Program-made: the position numbers and the translations under genes
In this document: piece after piece, positions 3,520-24,549 of the stretch
Layout of the letters: the number at the start of each line of letters is the position of its first letter
Position numbering within the stretch: position 1 is the first letter of the stretch
NCBI GenBank assembly: GCA_035625415.1
Contig: DASPPQ010000068.1
Span: 23,590-87,589 of the forward strand
Source: Thermodesulfobacteriota bacterium
GTDB taxonomy: Bacteria; Desulfobacterota; BSN033; UBA1163
DNA: 64,000 nt
Direction: 5' to 3'
The notes under the pieces: generated by a model
Told to the model about the DNA's origin: nothing
Seen by the model: the letters and a program-made list of their open reading frames with translations, nothing else
Database searches by the model: none

Positions 3520-3530
3520 CGTATACTCAC

Positions 3531-3677: not shown

Positions 3678-3679
3678 CA

Positions 3680-5650: not shown

Positions 5651-5658
5651 ATGCTTTT

Positions 5659-6564
5659 CTATGCTTCAAAGAAGTAATAAAACTTCGGTTCTGTACCTAA
5701 ATCTTCCTTGAGCCTGAAGACCCGCTTTCGATCGATGATATACCGCATTTCGCTATTCGGGTCGAGGAGGTTGCCAAATTTCCTCGTTCCCGTAGGGCAA
5801 GCTTCCACGCAGGCGGGATACCTTCCTTGCCTTACGCGCTGGATACAAAACGTGCATTTTTCCACAGCACACTTCATTCTGGGTCGGTTTCCCAGGTAAT
5901 GGACGGAAGGGTTTATCTCCTCTCTCGGAATGTTTGGCTCCGCCCAGTTGAAAACCCTCCCTTTATAGGGACAGGCTGCGATGCAGTATCTGCAGCCGAT
6001 GCACCAGTTGTAATCAACCACGACGATACCGTCCGGTTCTTGCCAAGTGGCGTGGACAGGGCACACCTTCACACAAGGAGGCTCCTGACATTGCTGACAC
6101 TGAACGGGAAGATAGATAAATCCCTTTTCCGGAACGAGATCAGGATTGTAATAATGTTCTGAGTCTTCAAGATTGATCAGGTTTCCTCTTTTGAGCCTGA
6201 GAACCCTAATCCACTGAAGTTGAGGGTCATGTCGTGAATGGTTATTTTCTTTTACACAGGCGTAAACGCATCTTCGACAGCCAATACATCGGGAAAGCTC
6301 CAGGCCATATGCCCAAAGCGTGTCGGGAACTGCCTCCTGGGTGCTAATTTGAAATTTCCTTCCATACTTTTGCAAGTACCTCTCTTCCAGCTTGGCAATG
6401 ACGCGCCTCTTCTCTTCCAGTGTCATTTCCCGAAAATGTTTCTGTAAAAAGTCCTCGGCCTCCTCCTTCGTGCAGGAGGAGAAGAGGGGGATAGCAAGAC
6501 CTCCTAGGGCAGTCAGTGAAGCATTACGAAGAAACTCTCTTCGGGTGAAACGTCTATTTAGCAT
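5659..6564 (-). CDS. TAT-exported 4Fe-4S cluster protein (NrfC/DsrO/HmcB-like)
   Basis: RREFLRNASLTALGG twin-arginine signal. Four Cys clusters (CIGCRRCVYAC, CQQCQEPPC, CIGCRYCIAAC, CTFCIQR). Confidence 0.7.
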   Translation of the reverse strand: MLNRRFTRREFLRNASLTALGGLAIPLFSSCTKEEAEDFLQKHFREMTLEEKRRVIAKLEERYLQKYGRKFQISTQEAVPDTLWAYGLELSRCIGCRRCVYACVKENNHSRHDPQLQWIRVLRLKRGNLINLEDSEHYYNPDLVPEKGFIYLPVQCQQCQEPPCVKVCPVHATWQEPDGIVVVDYNWCIGCRYCIAACPYKGRVFNWAEPNIPREEINPSVHYLGNRPRMKCAVEKCTFCIQRVRQGRYPACVEACPTGTRKFGNLLDPNSEMRYIIDRKRVFRLKEDLGTEPKFYYFFEA

Positions 6565-7067
6565 TACGAATCCTTTGGTTTTATTGGTGGAGGCTCGGGT
6601 TTTATCGGTTTGAATTTTGGCTGGTGAGGATCGTGGCAGTGAGCACAGAGATAGTAGGTTCTCTTGCCGGATCCCATAAAGTATCCAGTTCTTTTTCCAT
6701 GAATGCCCGCCTTCCAGTCATTATACACAAAACCGTGGCATTCCCCGCAGAGCCGATAGCTTTCAGTGAAGGGAATCAAATCCCCATTATACAGCCGCAG
6801 TTTATCTCGATTCTTCGCATCATGGCAATCAAGACACCACCGCATCGACTCGGCGTGATGGAGCTTGATATCGGTGTGCTCTTCCTTCAAGACTCTCTTC
6901 TTCCGATTCACCTCCATCGAGGCATGACAGTTGCTGCAGGGAAACAATCCCTCTGTCATTGGAGGTGGAGCGACAGGGAACTCTTCGCCCGCCCCATTTG
7001 AAAAGGACGCAAAACAAAGCCCTAACGAAAGCATCCCCAATGCGATGGTCTTGACTGTTTTCTTCAT
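6564..7067 (-). CDS. Periplasmic tetrahaem c-type cytochrome
   Basis: Signal peptide MKKTVKTIALGMLSLGLCFASF. Four CxxCH motifs (CSNCH, CLDCH, CGECH, CAHCH). First gene of the minus-strand operon. Confidence 0.7.
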   Translation of the reverse strand: MKKTVKTIALGMLSLGLCFASFSNGAGEEFPVAPPPMTEGLFPCSNCHASMEVNRKKRVLKEEHTDIKLHHAESMRWCLDCHDAKNRDKLRLYNGDLIPFTESYRLCGECHGFVYNDWKAGIHGKRTGYFMGSGKRTYYLCAHCHDPHQPKFKPIKPEPPPIKPKDS

Positions 7068-7272
7068 TCGTGAACGGCAACTGGGCAGGAGAGAAGGAGT
7101 TTAGTCATTGATCCGAAAGACTGGTGCTACTAAAAACCTTCCCAATAAATCCAACAAAAAAACTTTATTATAATCTGTTAACATCTTCAACGACAAAAAG
7201 CAAATACTTTGGAATCCCGCTCCTTCTGCATCACAGCTTGCAAAGGGGCTGTCTATGTGATAATTTTTCTCC

Positions 7273-8070
7273 ATGCAGGTCGATATTCAACTGGTTCCAT
7301 CTCCACCGAATTCAGATGCCCTTTTAAATCGAACAGTCGTTGTCGTCGATGTTCTGAGAGCGACTTCTGTCATGGTCAATGCGATATCCCAGGGAGCCTT
7401 GGAGATTCTCCCTTTGGCCGGTGTGGAGGAGGCTCTTCAGATGGCTAAGGTTTTTCCGCGGGGTTCCGTGCTTTTAGGCGGGGAGAGGGAAAGTAAGAGT
7501 ATACCGGGATTTGATTTAGGGAATTCTCCCAAAGAGTATGTCGCCGAAAGTGTGAAAGGGAAGAAACTGATCCTGACGACGACCAACGGAACAAAGGCGT
7601 TTCATTTGGTTTCTTCCGGGAAAGAAGTTTTAGTGGGAAGTTTTCTTAACATTGGAGCCGTGGCACGGAGATGTCTTGAGTCAGGGAGGGAGCTGCTCAT
7701 TTTCCTCTCAGGGGATGAAGGAGGTTTTTCTCTGGAGGACACAGTCTGCGGAGGAATGTTGATCGGTCTGATCACAAAGAAAAGGAAGAAATCTATTTCT
7801 CTGACGGATGCCTCCAGATGCGCCCAGATTCTTTATCAAAGATTCAAAAATAATTTATTAGAAGCTTTTCACCTCTCCTATCATGGAAAACAGTTGATTA
7901 ACCGTGGTTTTGAGGATGACCTTGACTATTGCGCTCAAATCGATATTACCTCCCTTGTCCCCGTATTTAGAGAAGGGGTGATCAGGGCCCCCTCATCCCC
8001 ACCCTCTCCCGCGCGGGGAGAGGGGAAGGGTGAGGGGCGTTATGCGATGCAAATTGAGGAGAACGAGTGA
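7273..8070 (+). CDS. 2-phosphosulfolactate phosphatase (ComB) family protein
   Basis: VVVVDVLRATSVMVNA and LGNSPKE motifs are typical of the ComB family. ATGA overlap with the next gene. Confidence 0.5.
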   Translation: MQVDIQLVPSPPNSDALLNRTVVVVDVLRATSVMVNAISQGALEILPLAGVEEALQMAKVFPRGSVLLGGERESKSIPGFDLGNSPKEYVAESVKGKKLILTTTNGTKAFHLVSSGKEVLVGSFLNIGAVARRCLESGRELLIFLSGDEGGFSLEDTVCGGMLIGLITKKRKKSISLTDASRCAQILYQRFKNNLLEAFHLSYHGKQLINRGFEDDLDYCAQIDITSLVPVFREGVIRAPSSPPSPARGEGKGEGRYAMQIEENE

Positions 8071-8540: not shown

Positions 8541-9761
8541 ATGAAATCTTCTGTCTCTATTGTCAAGTGCAAAGAATATGATGAAGAAAAGGTCTTGAGC
8601 GCGCTTCGCCAGGCCATCGACCTGATCGGAGGGATTCAAACTTTTGTAAACAAAGACAGTCGTGCTCGGCTCGGGGCGCTCTCCTCTCGGCGCTCGTCTC
8701 TCGGCAAAGCCGAGGGAAGCCGAGGGAAGCCACGGGTTCTCCTTAAACCTAATCTCCTTTACGGAAAACCTCCAGAAAAAGCTGTGACGACTCATCCCTC
8801 TGTCGTGAGGGGGATGATCCAGATCGTTCGAGAGGCGGGAGGAGTCCCTTTTATTGGAGATAGTCCTTCGGTCGGAAGTTTGACGAGGACGGCTGAGAAA
8901 GCTGGCATCAAGGCAGTGGCCGATAAGATGAAGTGCCCTCTTGTGGAATTCAACAGACCTGTTCTCCCTTTGAAAGGCGGAGGGAGAACATTTAGACAAT
9001 TGGAAGTTGACCAGACTGTTTTGGAAGCGGATGTGATCATCAACCTTCCTAAATTCAAAACCCATAGCCTGACGCTTCTCACCCTGGGGGTAAAGAACCT
9101 CTTCGGGTGTATCCCCGGACCTAAGAAAGCCTTATGGCATCTCAAGGCAGGAGATGATCGAAAAATCTTTGCCCAAATACTTTTTGATATCTCCCAGGTG
9201 ATCCAGCCCTCCCTCTCCATTTTGGATGGGATTGTGGGGATGGAAGGGAATGGACCGAATAGCGGCCGCCCGATTCCAATAGGATTGGTTCTGGCAAGCG
9301 GGGACCCCTTGAGTTTGGATCAGATCGTATGTGACCTGTTAGGGATTTCAAGGGAATCTCTGTTAACGAATCGTGTGGCGCTTGAACAGGGGATGGGAAA
9401 AGATCCGATTGAGGTTCTGGGGGAAAGGGTACAAGATCTTAAGATTTCCAACTTCCAGTTTCCAGCCCTCTCTCAGCCGGATTGGCACTTACCGGCAATC
9501 TTGAGAAAGGCGTTGAAGAATGCTCTGACTTCCAAACCAGTGATCGATGACGAAGTATGCAAGGATTGTGATCAATGTGCAAAGATCTGCCCACCCCAAG
9601 CCCTAACGAGAAAGGGAACGGATTTGATCTTTGATTACGGAGAATGCATTCGTTGCTTCTGTTGTCTTGAGGTCTGCTCAGAAGGAGCCATCTCGATCAA
9701 ACCAGGATGGGCCTTGAAGCTCGTCAGTGGAAGGTCGAAGGTGGAAAGTGGAAAGCAGTAG
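8541..9761 (+). CDS. DUF362 domain protein with C-terminal 4Fe-4S dicluster
   Basis: DUF362-like core plus CKDCDQCAKICP and CIRCFCCLEVC motifs. Contains a low-complexity insertion (SSRRSSLGKAEGSRGKPR) encoded by a short tandem gccgagggaa repeat. Confidence 0.5.
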   Translation: MKSSVSIVKCKEYDEEKVLSALRQAIDLIGGIQTFVNKDSRARLGALSSRRSSLGKAEGSRGKPRVLLKPNLLYGKPPEKAVTTHPSVVRGMIQIVREAGGVPFIGDSPSVGSLTRTAEKAGIKAVADKMKCPLVEFNRPVLPLKGGGRTFRQLEVDQTVLEADVIINLPKFKTHSLTLLTLGVKNLFGCIPGPKKALWHLKAGDDRKIFAQILFDISQVIQPSLSILDGIVGMEGNGPNSGRPIPIGLVLASGDPLSLDQIVCDLLGISRESLLTNRVALEQGMGKDPIEVLGERVQDLKISNFQFPALSQPDWHLPAILRKALKNALTSKPVIDDEVCKDCDQCAKICPPQALTRKGTDLIFDYGECIRCFCCLEVCSEGAISIKPGWALKLVSGRSKVESGKQ

Positions 9762-9819: not shown

Positions 9820-10557
9820 ATGCGTAACATAAAACTCCTCATTGAATACGATGGAACGAATTATCAAGGATGGCAGGTCCAGCCAGGAGGGCCGACCATC
9901 CAGGGGACGCTTGAAGAGAAGCTGTCACGGCTTACAGGCGAGAGAATTCGTTTGACTGGTTCCGGGAGAACGGATTCAGGGGTTCATGCCTTAGGCCAGG
10001 TAGCTCACTTCAGGACACAGAGCCAGATGGATATCCGTGCAATCCAGAGAGCACTCAACAGTCTTCTCCCTCCAAATATTGTTATTCAAAAGGTAGATGA
10101 GGTTGACGAAGGTTTTCATGCACGGAAGCATTCGAAAAGCAAGGTCTACGAGTACCGAATTCTCAATCGGAATCTTCGGTCAGTTTTTCACCACGGGTAT
10201 GTATGGCATATTCCTCAGAAGCTGAATTTGACGGAGATGAAGAAGGCGGCTCAGAGTTTGATTGGAGAACATGACTTTTCTGCGTTCCGCACGGTGGGCT
10301 CTCCCACTCGTACAACCATTCGAAGAGTGATTAGGGCGGAATGGAAGAGGGGGCGAGACGGCCTCATACGGTTCGAGGTCGAAGCAAACGGCTTTTTGAA
10401 ACAAATGATGAGGTCCATCGTCGGAACATTAGTCGAGATTGGAAGAGGAAAGATGAACGCTGCCGATTTTCGTAAGATCTTAAATTCCAAGGACAGGAAA
10501 GAAGCAGGCCCCACCGCCCCAGCCCAGGGATTATTCTTGAAAGAAGTGAAGTATTAA
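9820..10557 (+). CDS. truA: tRNA pseudouridine(38-40) synthase TruA
   Basis: N-terminus MRNIKLLIEYDGTNYQGWQVQ, GRTDSGVHALGQV catalytic motif, 245 aa. Confidence 0.85.
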   Translation: MRNIKLLIEYDGTNYQGWQVQPGGPTIQGTLEEKLSRLTGERIRLTGSGRTDSGVHALGQVAHFRTQSQMDIRAIQRALNSLLPPNIVIQKVDEVDEGFHARKHSKSKVYEYRILNRNLRSVFHHGYVWHIPQKLNLTEMKKAAQSLIGEHDFSAFRTVGSPTRTTIRRVIRAEWKRGRDGLIRFEVEANGFLKQMMRSIVGTLVEIGRGKMNAADFRKILNSKDRKEAGPTAPAQGLFLKEVKY

Positions 10558-10595
10558 TTGTGGCGCTTGGTTGACGGTAGATCGCTAATCAATCT

Positions 10596-10620
10596 GTAGG
10601 GCAAGGCTTTAGCCTTGCTC
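10596..10620 (+). repeat. REP-like hairpin (GTAGGG + 8-bp stem + TTTA loop), left flank of RAYT
   Basis: gtagg gcaaggc ttta gccttgc tc. The 5' GTAG is the tetranucleotide recognised by REP-associated tyrosine transposases. Confidence 0.6.
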
Positions 10621-10670
10621 AAAAACTTTACCCGATAAACACGGAAATTATCCACAAAAAACGCGTTCGG

Positions 10671-11101
10671 TTGAAGGGTTTCGATTATACGGGCTTCTTT
10701 CACTACTTCGTCACAATTTGCACTTACAAAAAAGAGCGGGTTTTTAAGAATGATCTTCTTTTTGTTAGCTGGCTAACTGACACTTTGCGAGAAAAGTCAA
10801 GTTCTTTTGGGTTTAGAGTCTGGGCATACTGTTTTATGCCGGACCATCTTCACCTTTTGATAGAGGGCAAAGATAACAGTTCGGACAAGAGGGGATTCAT
10901 CTCCTCACATAAGCAATCTACGAGCTTTTATTATAAAAAGAAAACGGGCCTGTCACTTTGCGCACGCGCTGAGAAGAGGAGAAGATACAACGAATGTTGC
11001 ACGCTATATTTTCAATAATCCAGTTAGAAAGGGCCTAGTGGACAACTTCAAGAAATACAAATCTCTTGGCTTCTTTGGATTTGACTTACTCATGGTATAA
11101 A
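10671..11101 (+). pseudogene. REP-associated tyrosine transposase (RAYT)/IS200-like Y1 transposase, frameshifted and truncated
   Basis: N-terminal frame has the HuH motif PDHLHLLIEG. A C-terminal segment in another frame reads ARYIFNNPVRKGLVDNFKKY, the conserved RAYT tail. The two frames cannot be joined without a frameshift and the middle part is missing. Confidence 0.6.
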
Positions 11102-11121
11102 TTTAGCATGTATTGTTTAAG

Positions 11122-11146
11122 AGCAACCCTAAAGGGTTGCCCTACA
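11122..11146 (-). repeat. REP-like hairpin in inverted orientation, right flank of RAYT
   Basis: Reverse complement is gtagggcaaccctttagggttgctc. This matches the left REP except for compensated stem bases. Confidence 0.6.
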
Positions 11147-11162
11147 AACAGGGATATTGGAC

Positions 11163-12296
11163 CTATATTCTAATCAATTCATATTCCCTTGTGCCCATCC
11201 CGATTTCTTCGGCATAGGCAAGCTGAATACTCCAGTTAACCAGCGGATAAATCGCTCTAAATTTGTCTTCTCCGGGTTTCCAGGCTCCTGTGAGTTTGGA
11301 AGTTCGGTTTCCTTCCTGCCCATTCACCAAATCAACCGACGCCTGATCGATGGCAACCGGGTCCTCGGAAGAAAGGATCCCGATATCGTTGACAATCGGT
11401 GTATCAGAATATCCGTAGCAGTCACAGGCGGGAGAGATTTGAGTGAGAAAGTTTAAGTGAAGCGTCTTTCCCTTTTTCTTCTGGATAACTCCATAGGCAT
11501 ACTCCACCATTTTCTTTTGAAAAATAGGGACGCTCTCGTTCCATTGGATTTCAATAGCCCCTGAAGAACAGGTGAGGATGCATTCTCCGCACCCGATGCA
11601 TTTTTTGGGATCGATAAAGGCAATACCCTGTTTGGTTTCGACCTCCGACTGCGGTGGCCGCATCGAGATGGCTTCCTGTGAGCACCGGCTAAGACAGGCC
11701 TTACATCCCTTGCAGGCTTTGCCCTTGACTTGGGGTGAGATATTTGAATGCTGACTCAGCTTTCCTTCACGGCTGGCGCACCCCATTCCCAGATTCTTCA
11801 AGGCTCCTCCGAACCCGGACAATTCATGACCTTTGAAATGGGTGACCGCAATCAGTCCATCCGCCATATAGATCTCTCGGGCGATGGAGACTGTTTTGAA
11901 AATGGGTTTGTCAATCCGAACCTTGACGGCACTATTGCCTCTCAAACCATCGGCAATCAGGATAGGGGCATTCACGACAGACTCTGTGAACCCGTTTTCA
12001 AAAGCGGTGATTAGATGGGAGACCGCTTCACCCCGAGTTCCAACATAGAGGGTGTTGGCATCGGTTAAGAAAGGCTTCCCTTTATATTGTTTGACTCGAT
12101 CCACCACCCTTCGTAAAAAGATGGGTCGAACAAAGGCCGTATTTCCTTTCTCCCCAAAATGGAGTTTAATCGCCACCAAATCCTTCTCCCGGATCTTTCC
12201 CTTCAGATCAGCCCGATCCAGAAGGATGTCCAATTTGTCCAGGAGGGTTTTCCCGGGTTCAACCCTGAGATCCGAAAAAAAGACAGAACTCTCCAT
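11163..12296 (-). CDS. DUF362 domain protein with 4Fe-4S dicluster insertion (second paralog)
   Basis: 377 aa. CKGCKACLSRC and CIGCGECILTC motifs. Core resembles the protein at 8541-9761. Confidence 0.5.
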   Translation of the reverse strand: MESSVFFSDLRVEPGKTLLDKLDILLDRADLKGKIREKDLVAIKLHFGEKGNTAFVRPIFLRRVVDRVKQYKGKPFLTDANTLYVGTRGEAVSHLITAFENGFTESVVNAPILIADGLRGNSAVKVRIDKPIFKTVSIAREIYMADGLIAVTHFKGHELSGFGGALKNLGMGCASREGKLSQHSNISPQVKGKACKGCKACLSRCSQEAISMRPPQSEVETKQGIAFIDPKKCIGCGECILTCSSGAIEIQWNESVPIFQKKMVEYAYGVIQKKKGKTLHLNFLTQISPACDCYGYSDTPIVNDIGILSSEDPVAIDQASVDLVNGQEGNRTSKLTGAWKPGEDKFRAIYPLVNWSIQLAYAEEIGMGTREYELIRI

Positions 12297-12423: not shown

Positions 12424-14520
12424 ATGAAGCGAGGCGAACCAACCACCATTCGAAACATAGGAACCTTCGGCCACGGCGGTGAAGGGAAGACCTCCTTGGT
12501 TGAGGCCATTCTCCTTGACGTGGGCGAAAATACCCGTCTTGGCCGTGTGGATGATGGTTCCTCGTTGATGGATTTTGAACCGGAAGAAATCAATCGAAAG
12601 ATTAGCATCAGTGCCTCTCTTTCTCATTTTGAGTGGAATAAACATTCGTTTCATATCATTGATACCCCGGGGTATGCCAATTTTATCGCTGAGGCGAAGG
12701 CCTCCATGAGGGTGGTAGATGGGGCCGTCATCGTCGTCAGCGGAAATTCGGGGGTCAAAGTGCAAACCGAGACCGTGTGGGGATACGCCAATGAGTTTCA
12801 AGTCCCACGAATTCTGTATGTCAGCAAAATGGATACGGAACGGGCCAATTTTCTCAAAGTGGTGGATGAGGTGAAAAAGATTTTTCCTTCTCAACCCCCC
12901 GTTCCTGTTCAACTTCCCATCGGAGGAGACGGAAGTTTTAAGGGCATGGTGGATTTGATTCAGAGGAAGGCTTATTTGTATCGTGAAGATGGGAGCGGTC
13001 AATTCGAACTCAAGGACGTCCCTCCGGACATGAAAGAAGGGGTGGAACGGCTTCGCGAGAAGCTGGTCGAGATCGTGGTGGAAATGGACGATCAATTAAT
13101 GGAAAAATACTTGGAGTCGGGAGAGGTTTCCATAGAGGAGATTACCCGGTGTCTTCGAAAGGGAACGATGGAAAGAAAACTGGTTCCTGCCCTTTGCGGC
13201 TCCTCCACCCGAAACATAGGGATGCAACCTTTTCTTGATCTGGCGATCTCCTGCTTTCCTTCACCGTTGGAAAGGGGTCCGGTTCAGGGAAAGAATCCCA
13301 GGACGGGAGAACCTGAAACCCGTGAACCCAAAGAAGATGCACCTTTCTCCGCCTTTGTCTTTAAGACGATCGCCGATCCCTTTGCCGGAAAACTGAGTCT
13401 CTTCAGGGTTTATTCTGGAACGGCGAATGCAGATTCCACTCTCTATAATTCCAAAAAGGATGTGAAGGAGAGAATCGGCCAAATTTTCTTGTTGGAAGGG
13501 AAGAAGCAGAAGCCGGTTGGCTTCGCCGGCGTAGGCGATATTGTGGCGGTTGCCAAATTGAAAGAAACCACGACGGGTGACACCTTCTCCGATGAGAAAA
13601 AGCCCATTGTATTCGAAGAAACGAAACTCCCCCTTCCTGTGATCTCCTACGCGCTAACCCCAAAGAGCAAAGGGGATGAGGACAAGATCACCGCTTCCCT
13701 GGCGCGCATCCACGAAGAAGATCCGACGATGATGTTGGGCCGGGACGAACAGACCGGTGAGATCATTCTCTCCGGTGTGGGCCAGACCCACGTGGAAGTC
13801 ATCGTTGAAAAATTAAAAAGGAAATTCGGGGTGGAGGTCAACCTCAGTGTCCCGAAAGTTCCGTATAAAGAGACGATCCGTGGATCGAAGACCGGAGTGA
13901 TCTATCGGCATAAAAAACAGACGGGGGGCCGGGGGCAGTTTGCTGAAGTCCATTTCGATGTTTCTTCCCTTCCGCGGGGATCGGGGTTCGAATTCGAAAA
14001 TGCCCTCACGGGAATGAACGTTCCAAGGAATTTTGTTCCGGCGGTTGAGAAGGGAATCGCTGAAGCGATGCAAAGCGGCGTCCTGGCTGGCTACCCAGTC
14101 GTGGACGTAAAAGTCCGATTCTACGACGGGAAGTCTCATGAGGTCGACTCCTCAGAGATGGCATTCAAGATCGCTGCGATCATGGCTTTTAAGAAAGGGG
14201 TTCAGGACGCCAACCCAGTGCTTCTTGAGCCCATCATGAAGGTGGTGGTGACGGCGCCGGACGAGAACATCGGTGATGTGATCGGCGACCTCAACAGCCG
14301 CCGGGGAAGAGTTCTAAGAGTCGATTCCAAAGGGAATTATCAAATGATCGAAGCCAATGTCCCGATGTCGGAGATGTTGAAATATGCTCCGGACCTCAAT
14401 TCCAAAACAGGGGGTCGCGGAACCTTTACCATGGAATTCTCCCACTATGAGGAAGTTCCTGCCCAACTGGCGGATAAGGTGATTGCTCAGGCCAAGAAGG
14501 AAAAGGAGAAAGAAGACTAA
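12424..14520 (+). CDS. Elongation factor G paralog (EF-G2-like translational GTPase)
   Basis: 698 aa. P-loop GHGGEGKTS, DTPG, SKMD and the full five-domain EF-G length. Not in the rpsL-rpsG-fusA context. Confidence 0.75.
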   Translation: MKRGEPTTIRNIGTFGHGGEGKTSLVEAILLDVGENTRLGRVDDGSSLMDFEPEEINRKISISASLSHFEWNKHSFHIIDTPGYANFIAEAKASMRVVDGAVIVVSGNSGVKVQTETVWGYANEFQVPRILYVSKMDTERANFLKVVDEVKKIFPSQPPVPVQLPIGGDGSFKGMVDLIQRKAYLYREDGSGQFELKDVPPDMKEGVERLREKLVEIVVEMDDQLMEKYLESGEVSIEEITRCLRKGTMERKLVPALCGSSTRNIGMQPFLDLAISCFPSPLERGPVQGKNPRTGEPETREPKEDAPFSAFVFKTIADPFAGKLSLFRVYSGTANADSTLYNSKKDVKERIGQIFLLEGKKQKPVGFAGVGDIVAVAKLKETTTGDTFSDEKKPIVFEETKLPLPVISYALTPKSKGDEDKITASLARIHEEDPTMMLGRDEQTGEIILSGVGQTHVEVIVEKLKRKFGVEVNLSVPKVPYKETIRGSKTGVIYRHKKQTGGRGQFAEVHFDVSSLPRGSGFEFENALTGMNVPRNFVPAVEKGIAEAMQSGVLAGYPVVDVKVRFYDGKSHEVDSSEMAFKIAAIMAFKKGVQDANPVLLEPIMKVVVTAPDENIGDVIGDLNSRRGRVLRVDSKGNYQMIEANVPMSEMLKYAPDLNSKTGGRGTFTMEFSHYEEVPAQLADKVIAQAKKEKEKED

Positions 14521-14665: not shown

Positions 14666-15127
14666 ATGCGTGCTGTCATCCAAAGGGTAAAATCTGCCCA
14701 GGTTTGTGTGGATGGCCGAGTATCTGGAGAGATTGGAAGAGGCCTTCTGGTGCTCCTCGGTGTGGGAAAGGGGGACGGGGAGAGTGACCTCTCTTTTCTG
14801 ACCTCCAAGATACCTGAACTCAGAATCTTCGAAGACAACTCCGGGAAGTTTAATCTTTCCTTAAAAGAGATAGGTGGAGAGATATTGGTCGTCTCACAGT
14901 TTACTCTTTTCGGCGATTGCCGGAAAGGAAGGAGACCCTCTTTCTCGGAGGCGGAAGAGCCTTCCGCTGCCAAGCATCTTTATGAACAATTTATTCTAAA
15001 ATTGAAGGAAGAAAGCGTTCCGGTCCAGACAGGGAAATTTCAGGCAAAGATGGAGGTTCATCTTATCAACGATGGGCCGGTAACGCTTCTATTGGACAGC
15101 AGACAGAGACAGGGAGATGAATTATGA
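14666..15127 (+). CDS. dtd: D-aminoacyl-tRNA deacylase
   Basis: [33 protein letters not shown] is the canonical Dtd N-terminus. The 11 codons upstream in the ORF track are repeat sequence. Confidence 0.85.
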
Positions 15128-16632
15128 GAAGCTATATTTACCTCGCTTTCTTAATCTTTTTTTTCCTCCTCATGGGTTCAACAGCGATTGCCCAGACTCC
15201 TGGGAGGGGTAGGGAGACGGGTATGAAAGAGATCAGGGAGCCAGCTGTCGCAGGAGCATTTTATCCCGATAATCCGGAAGTCCTTTCACGGGACGTGAGG
15301 CGTTATCTTGAAAATGCAAAGGGGGAGAAGCTGGAAGGTGAAATTGTTGCTCTCATCTCACCCCACGCTGGATATATGTATTCCGGCCAGGTGGCAGCCT
15401 ACGCCTATAAACTCATAGAGGGAAAAACGTTTGATTCTGTCGTCGTGGTCGCGCCAAGCCACCGGGCTCTTTTTAAAGGAGTATCCCTTTATGATCGGGG
15501 AGGCTTCCGAACGCCTCTCGGGATAGTCCCCGTGGATGTAGATCTCTCCAAGAAGATGATGGGGCAATGGAAAGAGATTCGATATCTTCCGGAGGCCCAT
15601 TCCCAGGAGCATTCCTTGGAAGTTCAAATTCCTTTCTTACAAGTCGTTTTAAAATCATTTAAACTGGTTCCCATTGTGATGGAGCCCTACTGGAGCTGGG
15701 ATACCTGTCAATCTCTTGCATCCGCTATTGCCGAGGCGGTGAAAGGGAAGAAGGTACTAATGATTGCCAGCTCAGACCTCTCCCATTTTCATTCTTATGA
15801 TGAGGCGGTTAATCTTGACAAGATCGTTCTCAGCTATATCGATCGATTCGATCCGGAAGGATTGAATCGAGACTTGAAGAGCGAGCGTTGCGAAGCCTGT
15901 GGCGGGGGGCCGGTGGTTGCAATCATGTTGGCAGCAAAAATGCTGGGCGCCAATCGTGGAAAAGTCTTAAAATATGCGAATTCCGGTGATGTGACCGGGG
16001 ATCGTAGTCGCGTCGTAGGATATGGGGCTGGAGTTCTTTATAAGGCAGCTGGGGGAAAAGAGAAAATGAAAGATGAAAAGAAGGTCGGCGTCGATTTGGG
16101 GTTGAATCAAGAAGAGAAGAAAACCCTCCTTCATATTGCCAGAACGGTAGTCGAGAATAAGGCGAGAGGGAAGGCCGTCCCAGAATTCAAGATTGGATCG
16201 CCTATTCTAAAGGAAAACAGGGGGGCCTTCGTCACTATTCACAAAAGAGGACAACTGCGGGGTTGCATTGGATACATTGAGGGGCATGGGCCGCTTCACA
16301 AGACCATTGAAGAGATGGCCGAAGCTGCTGCATTTCGCGACCCTCGGTTCGGTCCCGTAAGAGAGAATGAACTTTCAGAGTTGGAGTTTGAGATATCTGT
16401 TCTGACCCCTCTCAAAAAAATTAAGGATGCGAATGAGATTCAGGTTGGGAAGCACGGTATCTATATTAAAAAGGGGTGGTTTTCGGGTCTGCTCCTGCCC
16501 CAGGTGGCGACGGAATACGCCTGGGACCGCCAGACATTTTTGGAGCACACCTGCCAGAAGGCAGGCCTTCCTTCCAATGCCTGGAAGGAAAATGATACTG
16601 AAATCTATATTTTTTCAGCAGACATTTTTTGA
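15124..16632 (+). CDS. Fusion of AmmeMemoRadiSam system protein B (MEMO1-like) and AMMECR1 domain, with N-terminal signal peptide
   Basis: Signal-like [24 protein letters not shown]. Memo motifs AGAFYP and [19 protein letters not shown]-terminal AMMECR1 segment [21 protein letters not shown]...[12 protein letters not shown] overlap with dtd. Confidence 0.7.
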
Positions 16633-16648: not shown

Positions 16649-16948
16649 TCATCCGGTCTTGTATATCTGCGCAATGCTGGTTAATCGCGCGGCCAGGTCA
16701 TTAAGGTTCTGAGCTGCTTGATCCACCTGCTGCATGCCTTTCTGCGTTTGGGTCGCCCCTTGATTGATACTCTCCATCCAAAGCCTTTCGGCAGTGGAGC
16801 GCGCACTTCGGCGTGAAGCACGACCTTGGTCGACGACCGATAGGCAATGTCGCCTCTCAGGCAAGCCCTCCGGCAGATGTTGTGAAGAGAAAGTTGTAGA
16901 ATCATTTAACGTTGGCTGTTTTTTATCAGACTGCTTAAAATCAAACAA
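16649..16948 (-). CDS. Hypothetical 99-aa protein; C-terminus resembles a methyl-accepting chemotaxis protein signalling-domain fragment
   Basis: ...ESINQGATQTQKGMQQVDQAAQNLNDLAARLTSIAQ resembles the distal MCP signalling-helix region. No upstream MCP body, so it may be a remnant or a spurious ORF. Confidence 0.25.
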   Translation of the reverse strand: MFDFKQSDKKQPTLNDSTTFSSQHLPEGLPERRHCLSVVDQGRASRRSARSTAERLWMESINQGATQTQKGMQQVDQAAQNLNDLAARLTSIAQIYKTG

Positions 16949-17139: not shown

Positions 17140-17291
17140 AAAGGCCGAATTGAAATAAGCGGGGGAACCAGTTTTTAGGGGTGAATTCTAGACATCTAGA
17201 GAGGATATCCCTTAATCCTAACCCGTCAGCTAACTCCGCAGGCGACTAAGGGAGAGAATCGAACGCAGGGGATCCTCCTCTGCTTTTTTTT
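17140..17291 (+). promoter_or_regulatory. Candidate c-di-AMP (ydaO/kimA-class) riboswitch leader with intrinsic terminator, upstream of kdp operon
   Basis: Contains GCGGGGGAACC, GGGGTGAAT and ACCCGTCAGCTAACTCCGCAGGCG, recalled from memory as c-di-AMP riboswitch signature blocks. Ends in hairpin gcagggg-atcct-cctctgc plus T8. Confidence 0.5.
17265..17291 (+). terminator. Rho-independent terminator/attenuator hairpin + T-run in kdp leader
   Basis: 7-bp GC-rich stem (one G-U pair), 5-nt loop, followed by tttttttt. About 195 nt upstream of the first kdp-associated ORF. Confidence 0.6.
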
Positions 17292-17724: not shown

Positions 17725-19554
17725 ATGTTTATCCAAATCTGGCTTCTACCTTTTTGTTTACTCGCAGCAGCGACCCTGATCGCGTTCCCTTTGAGTCGCT
17801 ACATGGGGTGGATCATGGATGGGAAATACCGGCCTTTGCCGGTGCTGGGCTGGTTCGAAAAGCGTTTGGACAGTGGCTCCCAGAACTGGAAGCAGTATAC
17901 CATCGCATTGCTCATTTTCAACACGCTGATGTTCATCTATGGCTATGTGGTTCTGTCACTCCAGCAGTGGATGCCACTCAATCCGGACGGCAAGGGGATG
18001 ATTTTCCCCACGACTATCTTTCAAGCCGTGACCTCCTTCATGACGAACACGGACCTCCAGCACTATTCGGGCGAACAGGTTTTGTCAAACTTCAGCCAGA
18101 TTTTCTTTGCCATCTTTATGCTGTTTGTGTCTGCGGCGGTCGGCCTATGTGCACTGACTGCGATGATCCGACTCTTCCGTGGCGAGTCCAAAATTGGCAA
18201 CTTCTTTGTAGACATGTGGCGGGTGCTGGTTTACATGTTCGTGCCGACCGCCTTGATTCTCGCCTTCATCTTTATGGTCCAGGGTAGTCCGATGACCTTT
18301 AAAAGTTCTTACCAGGTTTCCACACTCGAACCTGCGGCCATGGGAACCACGGACAAGGGCGAGGCAAAGCAGCAGACGATCATAGTGGGGCCGGTGGCAG
18401 CATTCGAGTCTATGAAGATGCTTGGAACCAACGGGGGTGGATTTTACGGCATGAATTCCGCGCACCCATTTGAAAATCCGACGGGGTTCACGAATTTTTT
18501 CAACACTCTGGGCATGATGATCTTTCCGTTTGCCCTCGTGTTGATGTATGGCCGAATGCTCGGCCGGATGCGGCATGCCTACGTCATTTTCTCAGTCATG
18601 TTGGTGTTGATGGCTGGCACGATCGTCTGGGCAGTCTACTACGATACACTGAAACCAAACCCGGGATTAACCGGCCATCCTATTGCACGAACATACGAAA
18701 TTCCCAGTGGAACAGCACCGGGTGGAAAACGAGTAGTAAGTCTGCCAGCACTCCCAGGGCTGCCGGTGGACCAGTACCTGGGTAACCTTGAAGGGAAGGA
18801 AATGCGATTCGGGATTTCGGCAGGGGCCACCTTCGATGCACTGACGACAGATGTGACGTGCGGCGCGGTGAATGCAGAGGAGAACAGCCTCAACCCGATT
18901 GCAGCCTTGTCGCCCATGGTCGGGATGTGGCTCAACTGTATCTACGGCGGCAAGGGGGTAGGGATGATCAATCTGTTGCTCTACTTAATCATCGGGATCT
19001 TCGTGGCTGGGATGATGGTGGGCCGGACTCCCGAGTATCTGGGTAAGAAAATCGGGGGCCGGGAGGTGAAACTGGCAATCATCGCCCTGCTGGTCCACCC
19101 CTTCATGATTCTCTTCCCTACCGGGCTGTTTGCTGCGACAAGCTGGGGGCTCAAGGCAGTCAGCAACCCTGGTGCGGATGGCTTTTCACAAATCCTGTAC
19201 AACTTTTCCTCGGCCTCCGCCAATAATGGCTCGGCATTCGACGGATTATCAGTTGCCTATGGTTTGGTAAGTAATGCAAATCCGGCGCCGACAGCGATCC
19301 CATGGAATATCGCAGCGGGCCTCGTTGTCGTCTTCAGCCGTTATCTGCCGATTGTGGCGCCGATCGCCATGGCAGCATTTCTCGGAGAGAAGAAATCGAG
19401 CCCTTTTGGTCTGGGGACCCTGCGCGATGATACAGTTACCTTCGGTCTCCTCCTGATCGGGACGATTCTTATCGTCGGAGCGCTCCTTTTTTTGCCTGTC
19501 GCAGCACTGGGACCGCTTGCAGAACACTTAGGTCCCATTCCTTTCGGAGGCTGA
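17725..19554 (+). CDS. kdpA: Potassium-transporting ATPase subunit A
   Basis: 609 aa polytopic protein with typical KdpA selectivity-filter-like repeats (NGGGF region). Sits between kdpF and kdpB. Confidence 0.9.
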
Positions 19555-19754
19555 CCAGGAAGCCTTTATGGCTGCTTATTAAGAAACTTCATTGGTGCCC
19601 TAACAATGATGAATTGCGAGATGAATCAAAGGAGTCCGATATGAATAGAGTACCCGATAGTAAAGAAACCGTGGAGACAGTTCCCTTCAGTTCGGAGCAG
19701 CCGCGATCACTGCGCCGTGTGAAGCCAAGAGGGTTGATAGAAAAGGAAACCGGG

Positions 19755-21803
19755 ATGGCGGCCTTGAAACAGGCTTTCGTGATGCTGCGGCCTGATATCC
19801 AATGGAAGAATCCTGTGATGTTTGTGGTCGAGGTGGGCGCCTTTCTGACCCTTCTGTTTATCGTACAGGCGGCATGGGGTAGGCAGACCAGTCAGGTTCC
19901 GATTGCGTATTTTATCGCCCTTGACGCATGGCTTTTTCTGACGGTTTTGTTTGCGAATTTTGCAACAGCCCTTGCCGAGGCTCGTGGTAAAGCCCAGGCC
20001 GATTCACTCAGGCGAGCCCGTCACGACACGGTGGCCTACCGTTTGAATGTTGCCGGAGCCGTCGAGGAAGTTTCCTCGACGGTTTTGAAACTTGGCGATC
20101 GGGTGGTCATACAGGCAGGGCAAACGATTCCCGGGGACGGGGAGATCATTGAAGGGATCGCCTCCGTGGATGAGTCGGCGATTACTGGCGAATCGGCGCC
20201 GGTCATCCGCGCCGCGGGCGGCGACCGATCGGGCGTGACCGGAGGCACCGTGGTCCTTTCGGATCGGATCATTGTTCGGATTACCAGCGGGGCTGGTGAT
20301 TCGTTCCTCGACCGTATGATCGCGCTGGTGGAAGGGGCCATCCGTCAGCGATCTCCGAATGAGATTGCTCTCACATTATTACTGTCGGCCTTTACACTGG
20401 TCTTCTTGATCGTCGTCATTCCGCTTTGGCCCATGGCCTGGAACGCCGAACAGTATATGATGGGATATCTAGGTCTCCAAGAACCCTTGAGGAGTCTCGG
20501 CACGGATGTTCCGACCCTCATTGCGCTCCTGGTCTGCCTCATCCCCACTACGATTGGCGCTTTGCTTGCAGCCATCGGGATTGCAGGCATGGATCGCGCG
20601 CTACAGGCCAACATCATCGCTAAGAGTGGCAAGGCAGTGGAGTTAGCTGGTGACATCGACGTTGTGCTCCTCGACAAGACGGGCACGATCACGATAGGGA
20701 ACCGGAACGCAACAACCTTCTTGCCAATCGGAAAGTATTCGGCTGCCGACGTTGGGCGGCTTGCTGCCATAGCGTCCGCCGCTGACGAGACTCCTGAGGG
20801 AAAGAGCATCGTCAGGTTGTTCGAGAAGCAAAGCCGAACTCCGGTCATCGTGCCGCCGGACGCCCAGTTTGTGCCATTTACAGCCCAAACGCGCATGAGC
20901 GGCATCGATCTTCCTGACGGCCGGCGAATACGAAAAGGAGCGCCAGACGCCATCACGAAATTCGTCGAGAGCAAGCAAGGCAGCGTGCCGGGTGATCTCA
21001 ATGCATTGGTTGATAGCGTCGCATCCAAAGGGGCAACGCCCTTAGTCGTGGCTGATGACGGCCACATTGCGGGTCTGGTCGTTCTTGAGGATATCCTGAA
21101 ACCTCATATGCGGGAGCGCTTCGTGCGGCTGAGGAAGATGGGACTTAGGACCGTCATGATCACCGGGGATAACCCTCTCACGGCTGCGACCATTGCCGCA
21201 CGAGCAGGGGTCGATGACTTTCTCGCCCAGGCCACGCCCGAGACCAAGCTCTCTTATATCCGTAAGGAGCAGGCTGGTGGAAAGCTTGTCGCCATGATGG
21301 GAGACGGCACGAACGACGCACCGGCTCTGGCCCAGGCGGACGTTGCCCTCGCCATGAACGCAGGTACGCAGGCAGCTAAAGAAGCGGCCAACATGGTCGA
21401 TTTGGACAGTGACCCCACCAAGTTGATCGAGGTGGTAGAAGTGGGAAAGCAGCTTTTGATAACGCGAGGCGCCTTGACGACCTTCTCAATAGCCAATGAC
21501 GTGGCCAAATACTTTGCGATTATTCCAGCGCTATTTGCAGGGACTTTGCCATGGCTCAAGGCGGTTGACATCATGCATCTGCATTCACCGACCTCAGCCA
21601 TCCTGTCGGCTATCATCTTTAACGCGCTCATCATCCCTGCGCTCATCCCCGTCGCACTCAAAGGAGTTAAATACCGGCCTCTCGGTGCCGATGCTCTGTT
21701 GCGCAGGAACCTTCTGATCTGGGGACTGGGAGGCGTGATTCTACCGTTTATCGGCATCAAACTGATTGATCTCATCATGGTGGGTTTTCATTTGACCATT
21801 TGA
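19755..21803 (+). CDS. kdpB: Potassium-transporting ATPase subunit B (P-type ATPase)
   Basis: DKTGTIT phosphorylation motif, TGDN and [10 protein letters not shown], about 682 aa from the Met at 19755. The ORF could start earlier, at 19614 or 19641. Confidence 0.9.
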
Positions 21804-21873
21804 TTTGAAGTGAAGCAAGCCTGCCAATCCACCCCGGTCCAGACCGCGAGCGGTGCAGGCAAGGAGGCATAAT

Positions 21874-22893
21874 ATGTTACAAACCCTTTGGAAGAGCATT
21901 TTGTTGCTGTTATTTGCTGTGGTCATCTGTTGCGTTCTTTACCCGCTGGTTTTATGGGTGATCGGACAGGCCGCCTTTTCCTTTCGGGCTAACGGCAGTC
22001 TGCTGAGAGGTCCCGACGGCAAACCGGTGGGATCGCGGCTTATTGCACAACCCTTTACCAAGGACGAATACTTTCAGCCCCGCCCCTCTGCAGCGTCTTA
22101 CGATGCGTCTGCCTCTTCCTCGTCATCCTTGTCCGCCTCCAACTACGCGCTGCGCGACCGGGTCGCCCGGGCACTTGGTCCAATTGTGAAATATCGAAGT
22201 GGCCCCAAAGTCAGACAGCCTGTGGCACTGGACATCGAAAACTGGTTTCAAAAGGATATATTCCAAGGCAAGCCTCACATCGTGGCTCAGTGGGCGGACC
22301 TGCACAACGGCCTGGCGCAAGCGTGGGTCAAGGCGGACCCCAAGAATGGCGCATATGTAGACGGTTGGACAAAGGCTCATCCAGCTATAGTCGCCCAATG
22401 GATCAAGGACAATCCCGGTACGCCTCAACCAAAGGCCGATGATTTGGCCGTCGTGTTCTTTGTGAACTTCTCCACGGAGAACCCCGGTAGATTCCCTTCT
22501 CTTGTCAGCCGCACAGGAGCCGATGGCAAGACCAAAACAACGATTGAACCGGTCAAGGAGGGGTCCGATATTCAATCGATCTTCTTTGACATGTGGCGGC
22601 AGGATCATCCCGAGGCTGACCTTCAGGACGTTCCCGGCGATCTGGTAACCACTTCCGGTTCCGGGCTCGATCCCCATATTACGCTTCAAAACGCCGAGTT
22701 TCAATTGGATCGGATCGCCTCGAAATGGGCCGCCAACTTAAAACGCGATCCGAAGGTAGTCCAAAAAGAGATTGAGGAGATATTGCAGGAAAACGCTTCG
22801 GCCCCATGGTTTGGGCTCGCGGGTGAGAAGCTCGTGAATGTCCTTGAGGTCAATCTCGAACTTCGGAGGCGGTACGGAGCACCATCGCCATAA
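21874..22893 (+). CDS. kdpC: Potassium-transporting ATPase subunit C with a roughly 150-aa internal insertion
   Basis: N-terminus (VLYPLVLWVIGQAAFSFRANGSL) and C-terminus (TTSGSGLDPHITLQNAEF...VNVLEVNLELRR) match KdpC. The middle segment (about residues 95-245) has no counterpart in 190-aa KdpC proteins. Confidence 0.75.
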   Translation: MLQTLWKSILLLLFAVVICCVLYPLVLWVIGQAAFSFRANGSLLRGPDGKPVGSRLIAQPFTKDEYFQPRPSAASYDASASSSSSLSASNYALRDRVARALGPIVKYRSGPKVRQPVALDIENWFQKDIFQGKPHIVAQWADLHNGLAQAWVKADPKNGAYVDGWTKAHPAIVAQWIKDNPGTPQPKADDLAVVFFVNFSTENPGRFPSLVSRTGADGKTKTTIEPVKEGSDIQSIFFDMWRQDHPEADLQDVPGDLVTTSGSGLDPHITLQNAEFQLDRIASKWAANLKRDPKVVQKEIEEILQENASAPWFGLAGEKLVNVLEVNLELRRRYGAPSP

Positions 22894-22959
22894 GTGGGTA
22901 ACGCAAGATCGGGCAGGGATAGCCTTTATAGACATGGAGACATAAGTCCTGTGGGGTTT

Positions 22960-23024
22960 GTCATTCCGGGCTTGACCCGGAATCCAGTTATTTCCCCCCT
23001 GGATTCCTGCTTCGTAGGAATGAC
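22960..23024. repeat. Nested-stem structured element X1 (outer GTCATTCC/GGAATGAC, inner GGAATCCAG/CTGGATTC, two local hairpins)
   Basis: gtcattcc-gggcttgaccc-ggaatccag-ttatttcccccc-ctggattc-ctgcttcgtag-gaatgac. A second copy with compensatory hairpin changes is at 38070-38145. Confidence 0.5.
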
Positions 23025-23087
23025 GTCCTTTGGTGCTATAAATGGCGCTGTGTATAGAACAGGGAAGAATTAATGGGGGAGGGGAGG

Positions 23088-24383
23088 ATGAAAAAGAGAT
23101 TAATAGGTTTGAGTCTGGCGGTGTTGATAATCCTCACATTTGGAATGAATGCACACGCCGAAGAGGCATCTTCATCGACTTCAGACAAAGAGACTCAGGA
23201 GGTAAAGCCGTCGGAGGCACCGGCACCGCCACCCGGACTGTTGATGAGTCTTTTGGGAAAGGCGGGATTGGCCCAACCTTTGGACAAGGCCGGGATTAAC
23301 ATCTACGGCTACATCGAAGGCGGTTACTTTCATGACTTCCGTGTGCCGGGGACTGGCCATGGTCCAACCTTCATCGGGTTTAATAGCTACAAGGACGCAG
23401 TTACCCTTGACAAGATCAGTCTGAATGTGGAGCGCACGGTTGATCCGGCCAAGAAGCAGTTTGACTTCGGGTTCCACGTGGAAGGTATTTATGGGACGGA
23501 TGCCGCGTTCGTCCATTCGAATGGGCTCTTTGACTCACAGACGGGCCGCTATCAAGGAGACCTTCTCCAAGCCTATGTGGACCTGACCCTTCCCGACCTG
23601 CCGGTAAGAATCCGCGCGGGCAAGTGGCTCGCACTGGAGGGCTTTGAGCAATTTAGCGCCAACATCTACGGGGCCTTCGGCGATCCGGCCAGGGCCCTCT
23701 ATTCCTATAGCTACCAGTATCTCTACGCCGAGCCTTTTACTCAGACGGGCATTCTTGTCACCACGGTGCTCAGCCCGCAGTGGTCATTTGACGCCGGCTT
23801 CACGCGGGGCTGGAACCAGTCGGTTAAAGACGCCAATGGTGTCCTGGACTTTTTGGGCCGCATCACGTTTACGCCCAGCGACAAGACCTCCATCGTTCTC
23901 GTTATGACGGAAGGCCCAGAATTTCCGGCGGGTTTCGGACACAATCTGCCTAAAGGCGACCCCCACCACTGGTGGACCGCGTTGGACCTAGTGGTCACCC
24001 AGAAAATTACTGACAAATTGAGCCTGGGCTTGGGTGGTGATTACGTCTATGCTTCGCAGATCCCCGGATTGACAGGCGGTTCGAAGCAGTGGGGAGGTGT
24101 GGCTGGCTATGCGAGCTATGCATTTGGTCCGCATTTCACGTTCAATACCCGACTGGAGTGGTACAGAGATGCGGCCAACGGCTTCTCCGACGGGGCGCCC
24201 GTCAGGGCCAACTATTATGAGGCCACGGTGGGTGTAGCCATTAAGCCTTTCCCGAATGACAAATTCCTCTCGAAGTGGCTGTTCAGACCGGAAGTGCGTT
24301 ACGACCGCGCTGATCACTCGGTCTTCGACGGGGGAGACAGAAATCAGATCACCTTCAGCGTGGATGCCCTCTTCACCTTTTAG
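23088..24383 (+). CDS. Outer-membrane beta-barrel (porin-like) protein with signal peptide
   Basis: MKKRLIGLSLAVLIILTFGMNAHA signal. Alternating amphipathic beta-strand pattern. C-terminal aromatic FTF. Inserted between kdpC and kdpD. Confidence 0.5.
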   Translation: MKKRLIGLSLAVLIILTFGMNAHAEEASSSTSDKETQEVKPSEAPAPPPGLLMSLLGKAGLAQPLDKAGINIYGYIEGGYFHDFRVPGTGHGPTFIGFNSYKDAVTLDKISLNVERTVDPAKKQFDFGFHVEGIYGTDAAFVHSNGLFDSQTGRYQGDLLQAYVDLTLPDLPVRIRAGKWLALEGFEQFSANIYGAFGDPARALYSYSYQYLYAEPFTQTGILVTTVLSPQWSFDAGFTRGWNQSVKDANGVLDFLGRITFTPSDKTSIVLVMTEGPEFPAGFGHNLPKGDPHHWWTALDLVVTQKITDKLSLGLGGDYVYASQIPGLTGGSKQWGGVAGYASYAFGPHFTFNTRLEWYRDAANGFSDGAPVRANYYEATVGVAIKPFPNDKFLSKWLFRPEVRYDRADHSVFDGGDRNQITFSVDALFTF

Positions 24384-24549
24384 GATCGGTCTTAGATCCC
24401 ATATCCGATCTTATCCTTTAGGTTATAACCCCTTTCTGGTATAATACGTGACGTTTCTGCGGGGCTTGTTTACATGCGGCGTGTAGATTAAGCTAAAGAG
24501 CGGCTCCGTTGGAATTGGATGATCCAGAATAAGGAGACGGGCTTAGAGG

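Follow-up and report, generated by a model that had tools for sequence, protein, structure and literature searches.

A Memo–AMMECR1 fusion with a Sec-type leader as a probable module of an extracytoplasmic AmmeMemoRadiSam variant

Memo and AMMECR1 are protein families whose conservation extends from archaea to humans; AMMECR1 takes its name from the AMME contiguous-gene syndrome. Human MEMO1 has been studied in cancer cell migration (PMC7694686). The closest known system to the locus described here is the canonical, cytoplasmic AmmeMemoRadiSam system, which comprises component A (AMMECR1; TIGR04335), component B (Memo; TIGR04336) and a radical S-adenosylmethionine (SAM) enzyme (rSAM; TIGR04337). 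To our knowledge, its NCBIfam description mentions neither a fusion, nor leaders, nor an extra membrane gene. Here, we analyse a gene encoding a fusion of components B and A that lies on a 64,000-nucleotide stretch of DNA (the window; positions 23,590 to 87,589 of contig DASPPQ010000068.1, assembly GCA_035625415.1) from a Thermodesulfobacteriota bacterium. Components A and B are both present far above their cut-offs, and relatives have the cognate TIGR04337 enzyme adjacent; the locus differs from the canonical system in that B and A are fused, the fusion bears a Sec-type leader and no rSAM is encoded in the 64 kb, whereas in relatives the rSAM has a leader of the twin-arginine translocation (Tat) type and a SpeE-like membrane protein joins the cassette. 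Taken as a whole, these observations are best explained if the fusion is the B/A module of an extracytoplasmic variant of AmmeMemoRadiSam, a reading to which we assign a probability of roughly 60%.

A preliminary description of the locus had placed B and A in one 502-aa protein, and both domains are indeed full length (feature coordinates are collected in Table 1). Pfam Memo (PF01875) aligns to residues 39–303 (E 1.6e-67; profile positions 1–268 of 269; 228 bits against a cut-off of 27) and AMMECR1 (PF01871) to residues 337–502 (E 2.2e-59; 2–168 of 168; 200 bits against 25); full-length matches are likewise obtained to NCBIfam TIGR04336, AmmeMemoSam_B (290.1 bits, cut-off 26; 1–268 of 270), and to TIGR04335, AmmeMemoSam_A (193 bits, cut-off 99). 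The NCBIfam equivalog for 'MEMO1 family protein', NF001987, is missed (246 bits, cut-off 295). The same description had called for a structure-based domain model; in that produced by AlphaFold from an alignment of 42 diverse homologues, both domains are folded and intact, with a mean predicted local distance difference test score (pLDDT) of 91.6. Residues 2–17 are modelled as a helix, followed by a disordered tether at 21–33, and a further short disordered linker (residues 311–320) separates the domains, pLDDT being <50 in both of these segments.

The Memo domain model superposes on human MEMO1 (3bcz/7l5c) with a TM score of 0.83 and a root-mean-square deviation (rmsd) of 2.2–2.8 Å at 24–25% identity, and the AMMECR1 domain on archaeal PH0010 (1vaj) with a TM score of 0.78 and an rmsd of 1.8 Å. 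The putative metal-site residues H81, H113, D218, H221 and C259 align to H49, H81, D189, H192 and C244 of MEMO1, their counterparts in the motifs PHAGY, SHH, SSDxxH and CG; H49, H81 and C244 are modelled as Cu(I) ligands in 7L5C (PMC9477392). Among the 42 diverse fusions these residues are invariant, as are G380, C381 and G383 of the AMMECR1 motif LRGCIG. The gene is under purifying selection: the ratio of non-synonymous to synonymous differences (pN/pS) among 28 gapless relatives is 0.21 for Memo and 0.11 for AMMECR1. The linker (residues 309–328) has the lowest value in the gene, 0.086 among close relatives, despite part of it being predicted disordered, a pattern hinting that a site of interaction or processing is conserved there.

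Human MEMO1 (3BCZ, 7L5C, 7KQ8) shares the fold and the metal-site residues, but is cytosolic and stand-alone, is unfused to AMMECR1, lacks a signal peptide and has no known rSAM partner. The solved AMMECR1 family members PH0010 (1VAJ), MM0484 (1ZQ7) and ST0229 (1WSC) match the C-terminal domain over its full length at 38–40% identity, LRGCIG included; they are, however, stand-alone proteins of ~200 aa. The LigB-type (class III) extradiol dioxygenases (LigAB, DesB, aminophenol dioxygenase and DOPA dioxygenase) have a distantly related Memo fold (Foldseek E 1e-7 to 1e-11), although identity to the Memo domain is just 12–18% and we see no sign of ring-cleavage chemistry here; the host lineage, Thermodesulfobacteriota, is probably anaerobic.

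The N-terminus of the fusion has the sequence features of a Sec signal peptide cleavable by signal peptidase I (SPase I), namely a charged n-region, a hydrophobic h-region and an A-x-A site. The sequence of the first 23 residues differs among the 120 closest homologues, but a basic n-region, a hydrophobic core of ~14 residues and a terminal G-S-x-A-x-A preceding Q are kept. In the 61 distinct close leaders, position -1 is Ala in 58 and position -3 is small in 60, and the mean charge of the n-region is +1.7. The leader frame is open in 28/28 of the gapless relatives, although these have diverged (leader pS ~0.49) and synonymous changes are present within the leader itself; the leader pN/pS of 0.67 in the same set is relaxed, as expected for a signal peptide. 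This retention of both layout and intact frame makes export likely, and, judging by its sequence, the fusion is very probably exported by Sec and cleaved after AIA23. The host is a diderm, as a porin and a LapA domain indicate, and an extracytoplasmic role for the fusion is plausible. The hydrophobic, cleavable-type N-terminus described earlier stands, as does translational coupling to dtd, the dtd stop codon overlapping the fusion start as ATGA. The Shine–Dalgarno (SD) sequence of this first start is kept only in the nearest relatives, being variable or absent in others; in L004, the fusion gene lacks the dtd overlap and has an AGGTGG SD of its own. The same locus (10001-11641), together with P0030, P0039, P0077 and P0110, has ~44 additional aa (…ALHHT…GAGQALNLAWF…) inserted in frame into the tether that joins the signal peptide to Memo.

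The preliminary description had regarded an exported B/A fusion as unusual, a judgement that does not survive comparison: the fusion is an ordinary member of a very large and already annotated family, with thousands of members, in which exported versions are the majority. A homologue search scored ~8000 candidates, and the best 120, which were examined, are all Memo–AMMECR1 fusions; many of them are already labelled 'AmmeMemoRadiSam system protein B/AmmeMemoRadiSam system protein A' by JGI, and close relatives are assigned by NCBI to metagenome-assembled genomes of Thermodesulfobacteriota. Among the homologues is P0002 (89% identical; GCA_049684675.1). An exhaustive search of representatives gave 20,903 matches, of which the best 150 cluster representatives are nearly all fusions of 450–550 aa. 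In a scan of one genome per GTDB species, fusion loci were found in Thermodesulfobacteriota, Acidobacteriota, Omnitrophota, Bacteroidota, Zixibacteria, Latescibacterota, KSB1, Planctomycetota, Verrucomicrobiota and others. Scored with a hydrophobicity heuristic rather than a trained predictor, an N-terminal leader is present in 52/79 assessable diverse genomic loci and in at least 86/150 fusion representatives. Leaders with a lipobox Cys or an A-x-A site occur across many phyla, the lipobox in many of the leader-bearing cases.

In other phyla, exported fusions typically have a TIGR04337 rSAM as their neighbour. Within the available flank of 80 diverse fusion loci, an rSAM was found near the fusion in 39, usually adjacent and on the same strand. 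All five neighbouring rSAMs that were tested are true TIGR04337 enzymes (347–395 bits, cut-off 220), and each has an N-terminal extension of 34–91 residues lying outside the profile. Such extensions hold either [ST]-[RK]-R-x-F-[LI]-K motifs or Sec-like hydrophobic leaders. Among 115 distinct homologues of one such enzyme, the N-terminus has RR in 114 and KR in one, within the consensus TRRNFLG, after which come a stretch of mild hydrophobicity and an A-x-A site (...ARAAA). Motifs of this type are also found on rSAMs of the clade to which the window belongs (LTRRDFFKK, ITRRDFFKE, TNRRDFLKT and LTRREFLER), and a KRxFLK motif is found on the rSAM leaders of Bacteroidales. The leader states of the two proteins covary: leader-bearing fusions are accompanied by a leader-bearing rSAM at 23 loci and by a leaderless one at 8, while leaderless fusions are accompanied by a leaderless rSAM at 5 loci and by a leader-bearing one at a single locus. 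An apparent 881-aa triple fusion of rSAM, Memo and AMMECR1 in L038 proved to be an artefact of a high-GC open frame together with a frameshift of 1 nt at the 3' end of the rSAM gene; rSAM and fusion are separate genes there, with a TGA/ATG overlap region.

A third gene recurs at 20 loci, 19 of which are leader-bearing. It encodes a polytopic membrane protein of ~700–840 aa with a central spermidine-synthase-like domain, of the type described by NF037959 ('fused MFS/spermidine synthase'); for the L055 protein the score is 48.9 bits (cut-off 40). Hydropathy gave inconsistent counts, from 5 to 7, of the helices before the soluble domain. In L085, the fusion is followed by the rSAM, and the Spermine_synth gene is on the opposite strand. 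No gene of the NF037959 type was found in the window by tblastn. The occurrence elsewhere of the exported fusion, the Tat-leader TIGR04337 rSAM and, frequently, the SpeE-like gene as a cassette suggests that the system seems to relocate as a unit.

In the HXS antiphage system, the rSAM is reportedly cytoplasmic, and the Tat signal is carried by the effector that it matures. That system provides a precedent for radical-SAM chemistry serving a periplasmic function via Tat (PMC13128918), with the difference that, in the loci considered here, it is the rSAM enzyme that bears the Tat-type leader; beyond membership of the rSAM superfamily, the two sets of proteins are unrelated. We found no literature specifically on AmmeMemoRadiSam or on rSAMs with Tat leaders, although Burroughs et al. 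(2019) may already mention secreted versions or the spermidine-synthase-like neighbour. The Tat-type-leader rSAM beside exported fusions, the polymorphism of the rSAM in the clade and the conserved second start were met nowhere in the searchable literature, and appear to be new.

The second start concerns Met34 of the fusion. The earlier reading of the N-terminus was correct as to the leader, but overlooked an alternative in-frame start, the SD of which is better conserved than that of the first. In 22 of 25 distinct clade genes, codons 30 and 31 read AAG-GAG, 6 nt before ATG-34 (AGG-GAG in the window), whereas AAGGAG is used at just 28% (42/151) of the other Lys-Glu pairs in the same genes. 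Moreover, codon identity reaches at least 95% at only 16 of 378 codons, K30 and E31 among them, and codons 35–37 are also unusually conserved at synonymous sites. M34 is the exact start of leaderless relatives. These patterns suggest that a leaderless cytoplasmic isoform is also made from M34, and we tentatively propose, at odds a little short of even, that the protein is dually localized, an exported 502-aa precursor being accompanied by a cytoplasmic 469-aa form; this would refine, rather than replace, the extracytoplasmic reading. On the other side, Met is only weakly enriched near the Memo start outside the clade (23/86, or 27%, versus 16% expected; p=0.007), and the SD-like element could alternatively be an ancestral ribosome-binding site that has become frozen, or a site at which translation pauses to the benefit of targeting.

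The absence of an rSAM partner, as stated in the preliminary description, is true of the window itself and is not a general property of the fusion, the enzyme being linked in one relative, unlinked in others of the clade and adjacent in other phyla. In the 64 kb, no rSAM was detected by a scan for CxxxCxxC in open reading frames (ORFs) of at least 100 aa, by a TIGR04337-type hidden Markov model on the six-frame translation, or by tblastn; a lenient tblastn (E up to 100) with the clade's own rSAM returned only noise. The local test of the three-component definition, TIGR04337 encoded together with A and B, was accordingly negative over the 64 kb. The sole CxxxCxxC match (25137-25457) falls in a shadow ORF of 107 aa that lies out of frame within kdpD. 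Similarly, there is no rSAM within 10 kb either side of the fusion in the close relatives L001-L004.

A metagenome scan, covering DNA of ~70 relatives, bears on the origin of this state. In L099, whose fusion is 80% identical to that of the window and whose gene order is the same, an rSAM of 386 aa (TIGR04337, 342 bits; leader 'KLTRRDFFKK') lies between the cytochrome and 2-phosphosulfolactate-phosphatase-family genes, ~7 kb upstream of the fusion, and in L166 an rSAM is directly upstream of the phosphatase-family gene. At the same place, directly upstream of that gene, L125 (58-147) and L129 (1179-1280) retain a relic of ~100 bp from the rSAM 3' end, which has an in-frame stop (RFCG(stop)PIVGIWS, compared with RFCGYPIVGIWS). 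The cytochrome and phosphatase genes are adjacent, with no rSAM between them, in the window and in L001, L004, L087, L088, L090, L093, L096, L131 and L151; DNA alignment and tblastn found no relic in the window junction (7068-7272). The syntenic enzymes of L099 and L166, together with the relics, indicate that an rSAM stood here ancestrally and that deletions have removed it repeatedly, and the relics speak against the L099-type rSAM being a recent insertion. In the window, then, the syntenic junction has lost its rSAM gene by deletion.

Whether the genome has lost the enzyme altogether, leaving an exported Memo–AMMECR1 protein that acts alone, is a separate matter. Besides the deletion, the relics and the empty 64 kb, such an outcome would fit the continued purifying selection on the fusion and the relative numbers of clade-specific clusters, ~23 for the rSAM (at least 72% identity) against >120 for the fusion (at least 75%), although these counts are a crude proxy. 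We also know of no TIGR04337-type rSAM partner for the eukaryotic MEMO1 and AMMECR1 proteins. Set against this are the unlinked rSAM copies in the clade, beside LemA/DUF2207 in L167 and L168 and beside BipA in L169; indeed, L168 comes from the same metagenome as L144, an rSAM-less fusion locus, and has a matching GC content. With 64 kb of the genome examined, we consider complete loss possible, but distinctly short of an even chance.

Several of these observations weigh against our preferred interpretation, in which the fusion belongs to an extracytoplasmic AmmeMemoRadiSam variant. The predicted export and cleavage rest on pattern and conservation. The absence of an rSAM from the window is real, but, given the unlinked copies, the enzyme may still be encoded elsewhere in the genome. 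The Tat assignment is based on the conserved motif, because Pfam TAT_signal (PF10518) matched 2/10 of the rSAM leaders, and these at 19.2 and 16.6 bits, below the cut-off of 22.7. The covariation of leader states (Fisher p=0.014 for the counts 23, 8, 1 and 5) is a statistic that ignores phylogeny, and the 8 leader-bearing fusions with a leaderless rSAM, as in Prevotella, mean that export of the whole system is not universal. We know of no source of SAM or reductant for a periplasmic rSAM, and Tat targeting of such an enzyme is therefore unexpected. Lastly, several relatives have a weak SD or none at the first start, whereas that of the internal start hardly varies, so the leaderless form could be the major product.

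Two further explanations address the topology of the fusion. Its N-terminus might be an uncleaved signal anchor, giving a type II topology with both domains tethered on the periplasmic face: Y4 to A23 form an uncharged run of 20 residues, over part of which the helix is modelled, and many homologues in other phyla are lipobox lipoproteins, whose membrane tethering suggests membrane-proximal action. We nevertheless judge this improbable, as the near-invariant Ala at -1, the small residue at -3 and the Gln that follows are the signature of selection for SPase I cleavage, and the strongly hydrophobic core spans just ~14 residues. Least probable is a purely cytoplasmic protein with its true start at M34 and 33 upstream codons that are untranslated or irrelevant, for although the internal SD is strong, conserved and well spaced, 469-aa products were chosen by some gene callers and leaderless homologues exist, the 99-nt leader frame has stayed open in every diverged relative compared (a random 33-codon frame has a stop ~80% of the time), the tripartite layout and A-x-A site persist despite sequence turnover, insertions in relatives stay in frame, start 1 in the window has both ATGA coupling and a GGGAG SD, and homologues in many phyla have unrelated leaders.

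Returning to the extracytoplasmic reading, a possible course of events is as follows. Translation from the ATG at 15124, coupled to dtd, would yield a precursor with a Sec-type signal peptide, and cleavage by SPase I after AIA23 would release a periplasmic two-domain enzyme with a short flexible tether; the second SD and M34 would probably also give rise to a leaderless cytoplasmic isoform, as the nucleotide-level conservation suggests. The fusion may work with an unlinked rSAM or without any rSAM. As a working guess, it would process, in a metal-dependent manner, a substrate that is exposed in the envelope, whether embedded in the membrane or periplasmic, and, where an rSAM is present, that enzyme may act on the substrate first. 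Burroughs et al. (2019, J Biol Chem) reportedly linked the contexts of Memo to the modification of nucleotide bases and isoprenoids; a membrane isoprenoid substrate would fit an extracytoplasmic, membrane-proximal module. More speculatively, and in our view rather unlikely in its entirety, the system may be an extracytoplasmic machine in most of the bacteria that fuse B and A: a Sec-exported or lipoprotein Memo–AMMECR1, a Tat-exported periplasmic rSAM and a SpeE-like membrane protein that possibly handles or supplies a SAM-derived cofactor would act on a substrate in the envelope, and the lineage of the window would have deleted the rSAM while retaining the fusion, with two starts for two compartments.

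Table 1. Coordinates of the fusion gene, its signals and neighbours in the window, and of partner genes in other loci (locus number before the colon)
Feature	Position	Strand	Remarks
Precursor ORF of the Memo–AMMECR1 (AmmeMemoRadiSam B/A) fusion	15124..16632 (stop codon included)	+	ATG start; 502 aa
Shine–Dalgarno 1 (GGGAG)	15112..15116	+	7 nt before ATG 15124, within dtd 3' end
Predicted signal peptide, residues 1-23	15124..15192	+	n-region MRS, h-region, c-region GSTAIA; predicted SPase I cut between AIA and QT
Flexible tether, residues 24-35	15193..15228	+	pLDDT <50 at 21-33
Internal Shine–Dalgarno 2	15211..15216	+	window AGGGAG, relatives AAGGAG; ATG 15223 follows after 6 nt
Alternative in-frame start codon M34	15223..15225	+	would yield 469-aa cytoplasmic isoform
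Memo / AmmeMemoRadiSam-B domain	15229..16047	+	residues ~36-308; metal-site H81, H113, D218, H221, C259 intact
Inter-domain linker	16048..16107	+	residues 309-328
AMMECR1 / AmmeMemoRadiSam-A domain	16108..16629	+	residues ~329-502; invariant LRGCIG motif (C381)
dtd (D-aminoacyl-tRNA deacylase)	14666..15127	+	likely start M12 of listed ORF; stop overlaps fusion ATG (ATGA)
EF-G paralogue	12424..14520	+	698 aa; all five EF-G domains
Empty junction	7068..7272	.	205-bp spacer, cytochrome gene (6564-7067, -) to 2-phosphosulfolactate-phosphatase-family gene (7273-8070, +)
Tat-type-leader TIGR04337 rSAMs beside fusions	L009:3716-4987, L043:8610-9956, L046:8788-9897, L058:8718-9968, L099:1600-2760, L085:10001-11158, others		
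SpeE-like membrane genes	L055:7700-9838, L084:7761-9917, L085:11215-13485, plus 17 loci		

The order of genes around the fusion is kept in close relatives: DUF362/Fer4 on the minus strand, the EF-G paralogue, dtd (Tyr_Deacylase, E 3.6e-58; TIGR00256, 186 bits) and the fusion. Every close relative examined has the EF-G paralogue, possibly a specialized translation GTPase, directly preceding dtd and the fusion. Two conserved DUF362 proteins are encoded on the minus strand (8541-9761 and 11163-12296), the latter also with 4Fe-4S ferredoxin domains, and in another locus (L010:11427-12479) a DUF362-like neighbour of the fusion has an RR-type leader of its own (TRRLFMRLLG). Just 3' of the fusion is a 99-aa ORF on the minus strand (16649-16948), whose counterpart at the same position in L001-L003 is 87 aa and has no Pfam match; a strong terminator-like hairpin followed by a T-run (17265-17283, plus strand) lies ~630 bp past the fusion. 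Further downstream, a kdp cluster (17725-26601) begins with a KdpA-like ORF (17725-19554) and a KdpB-like P-type ATPase (19614-21803), both called from their sequences and the annotation of L004, and continues by Pfam with KdpC, an OmpL-like porin and KdpD. As listed, the ORF for KdpC has an unusual length of 346 aa and matches KdpC over two stretches. On the minus strand at 1138-7067, a respiratory-type module, consisting of a molybdopterin oxidoreductase, an NrfD-like membrane subunit and a small cytochrome-like ORF, borders the junction that is occupied by the rSAM in relatives; the ORF at 5659-6564 is annotated in relatives as a 4Fe-4S protein.

The main interest of this locus lies in the wider picture to which it belongs: probably an extracytoplasmic variant of AmmeMemoRadiSam with a Tat-leader rSAM, polymorphic loss of that enzyme and a likely dual start. 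The clade of the window constitutes a natural experiment on the need of Memo–AMMECR1 for an rSAM, as closely related genomes have the rSAM linked, unlinked, decayed or absent. A Tat-exported rSAM, if true, would challenge the assumed confinement of radical-SAM chemistry to the cytoplasm, where SAM and low-potential reductants are found. Moreover, if the fused form and its rSAM act outside the cytoplasm, their substrate would be envelope-exposed, and the search for it would be sharply narrowed.

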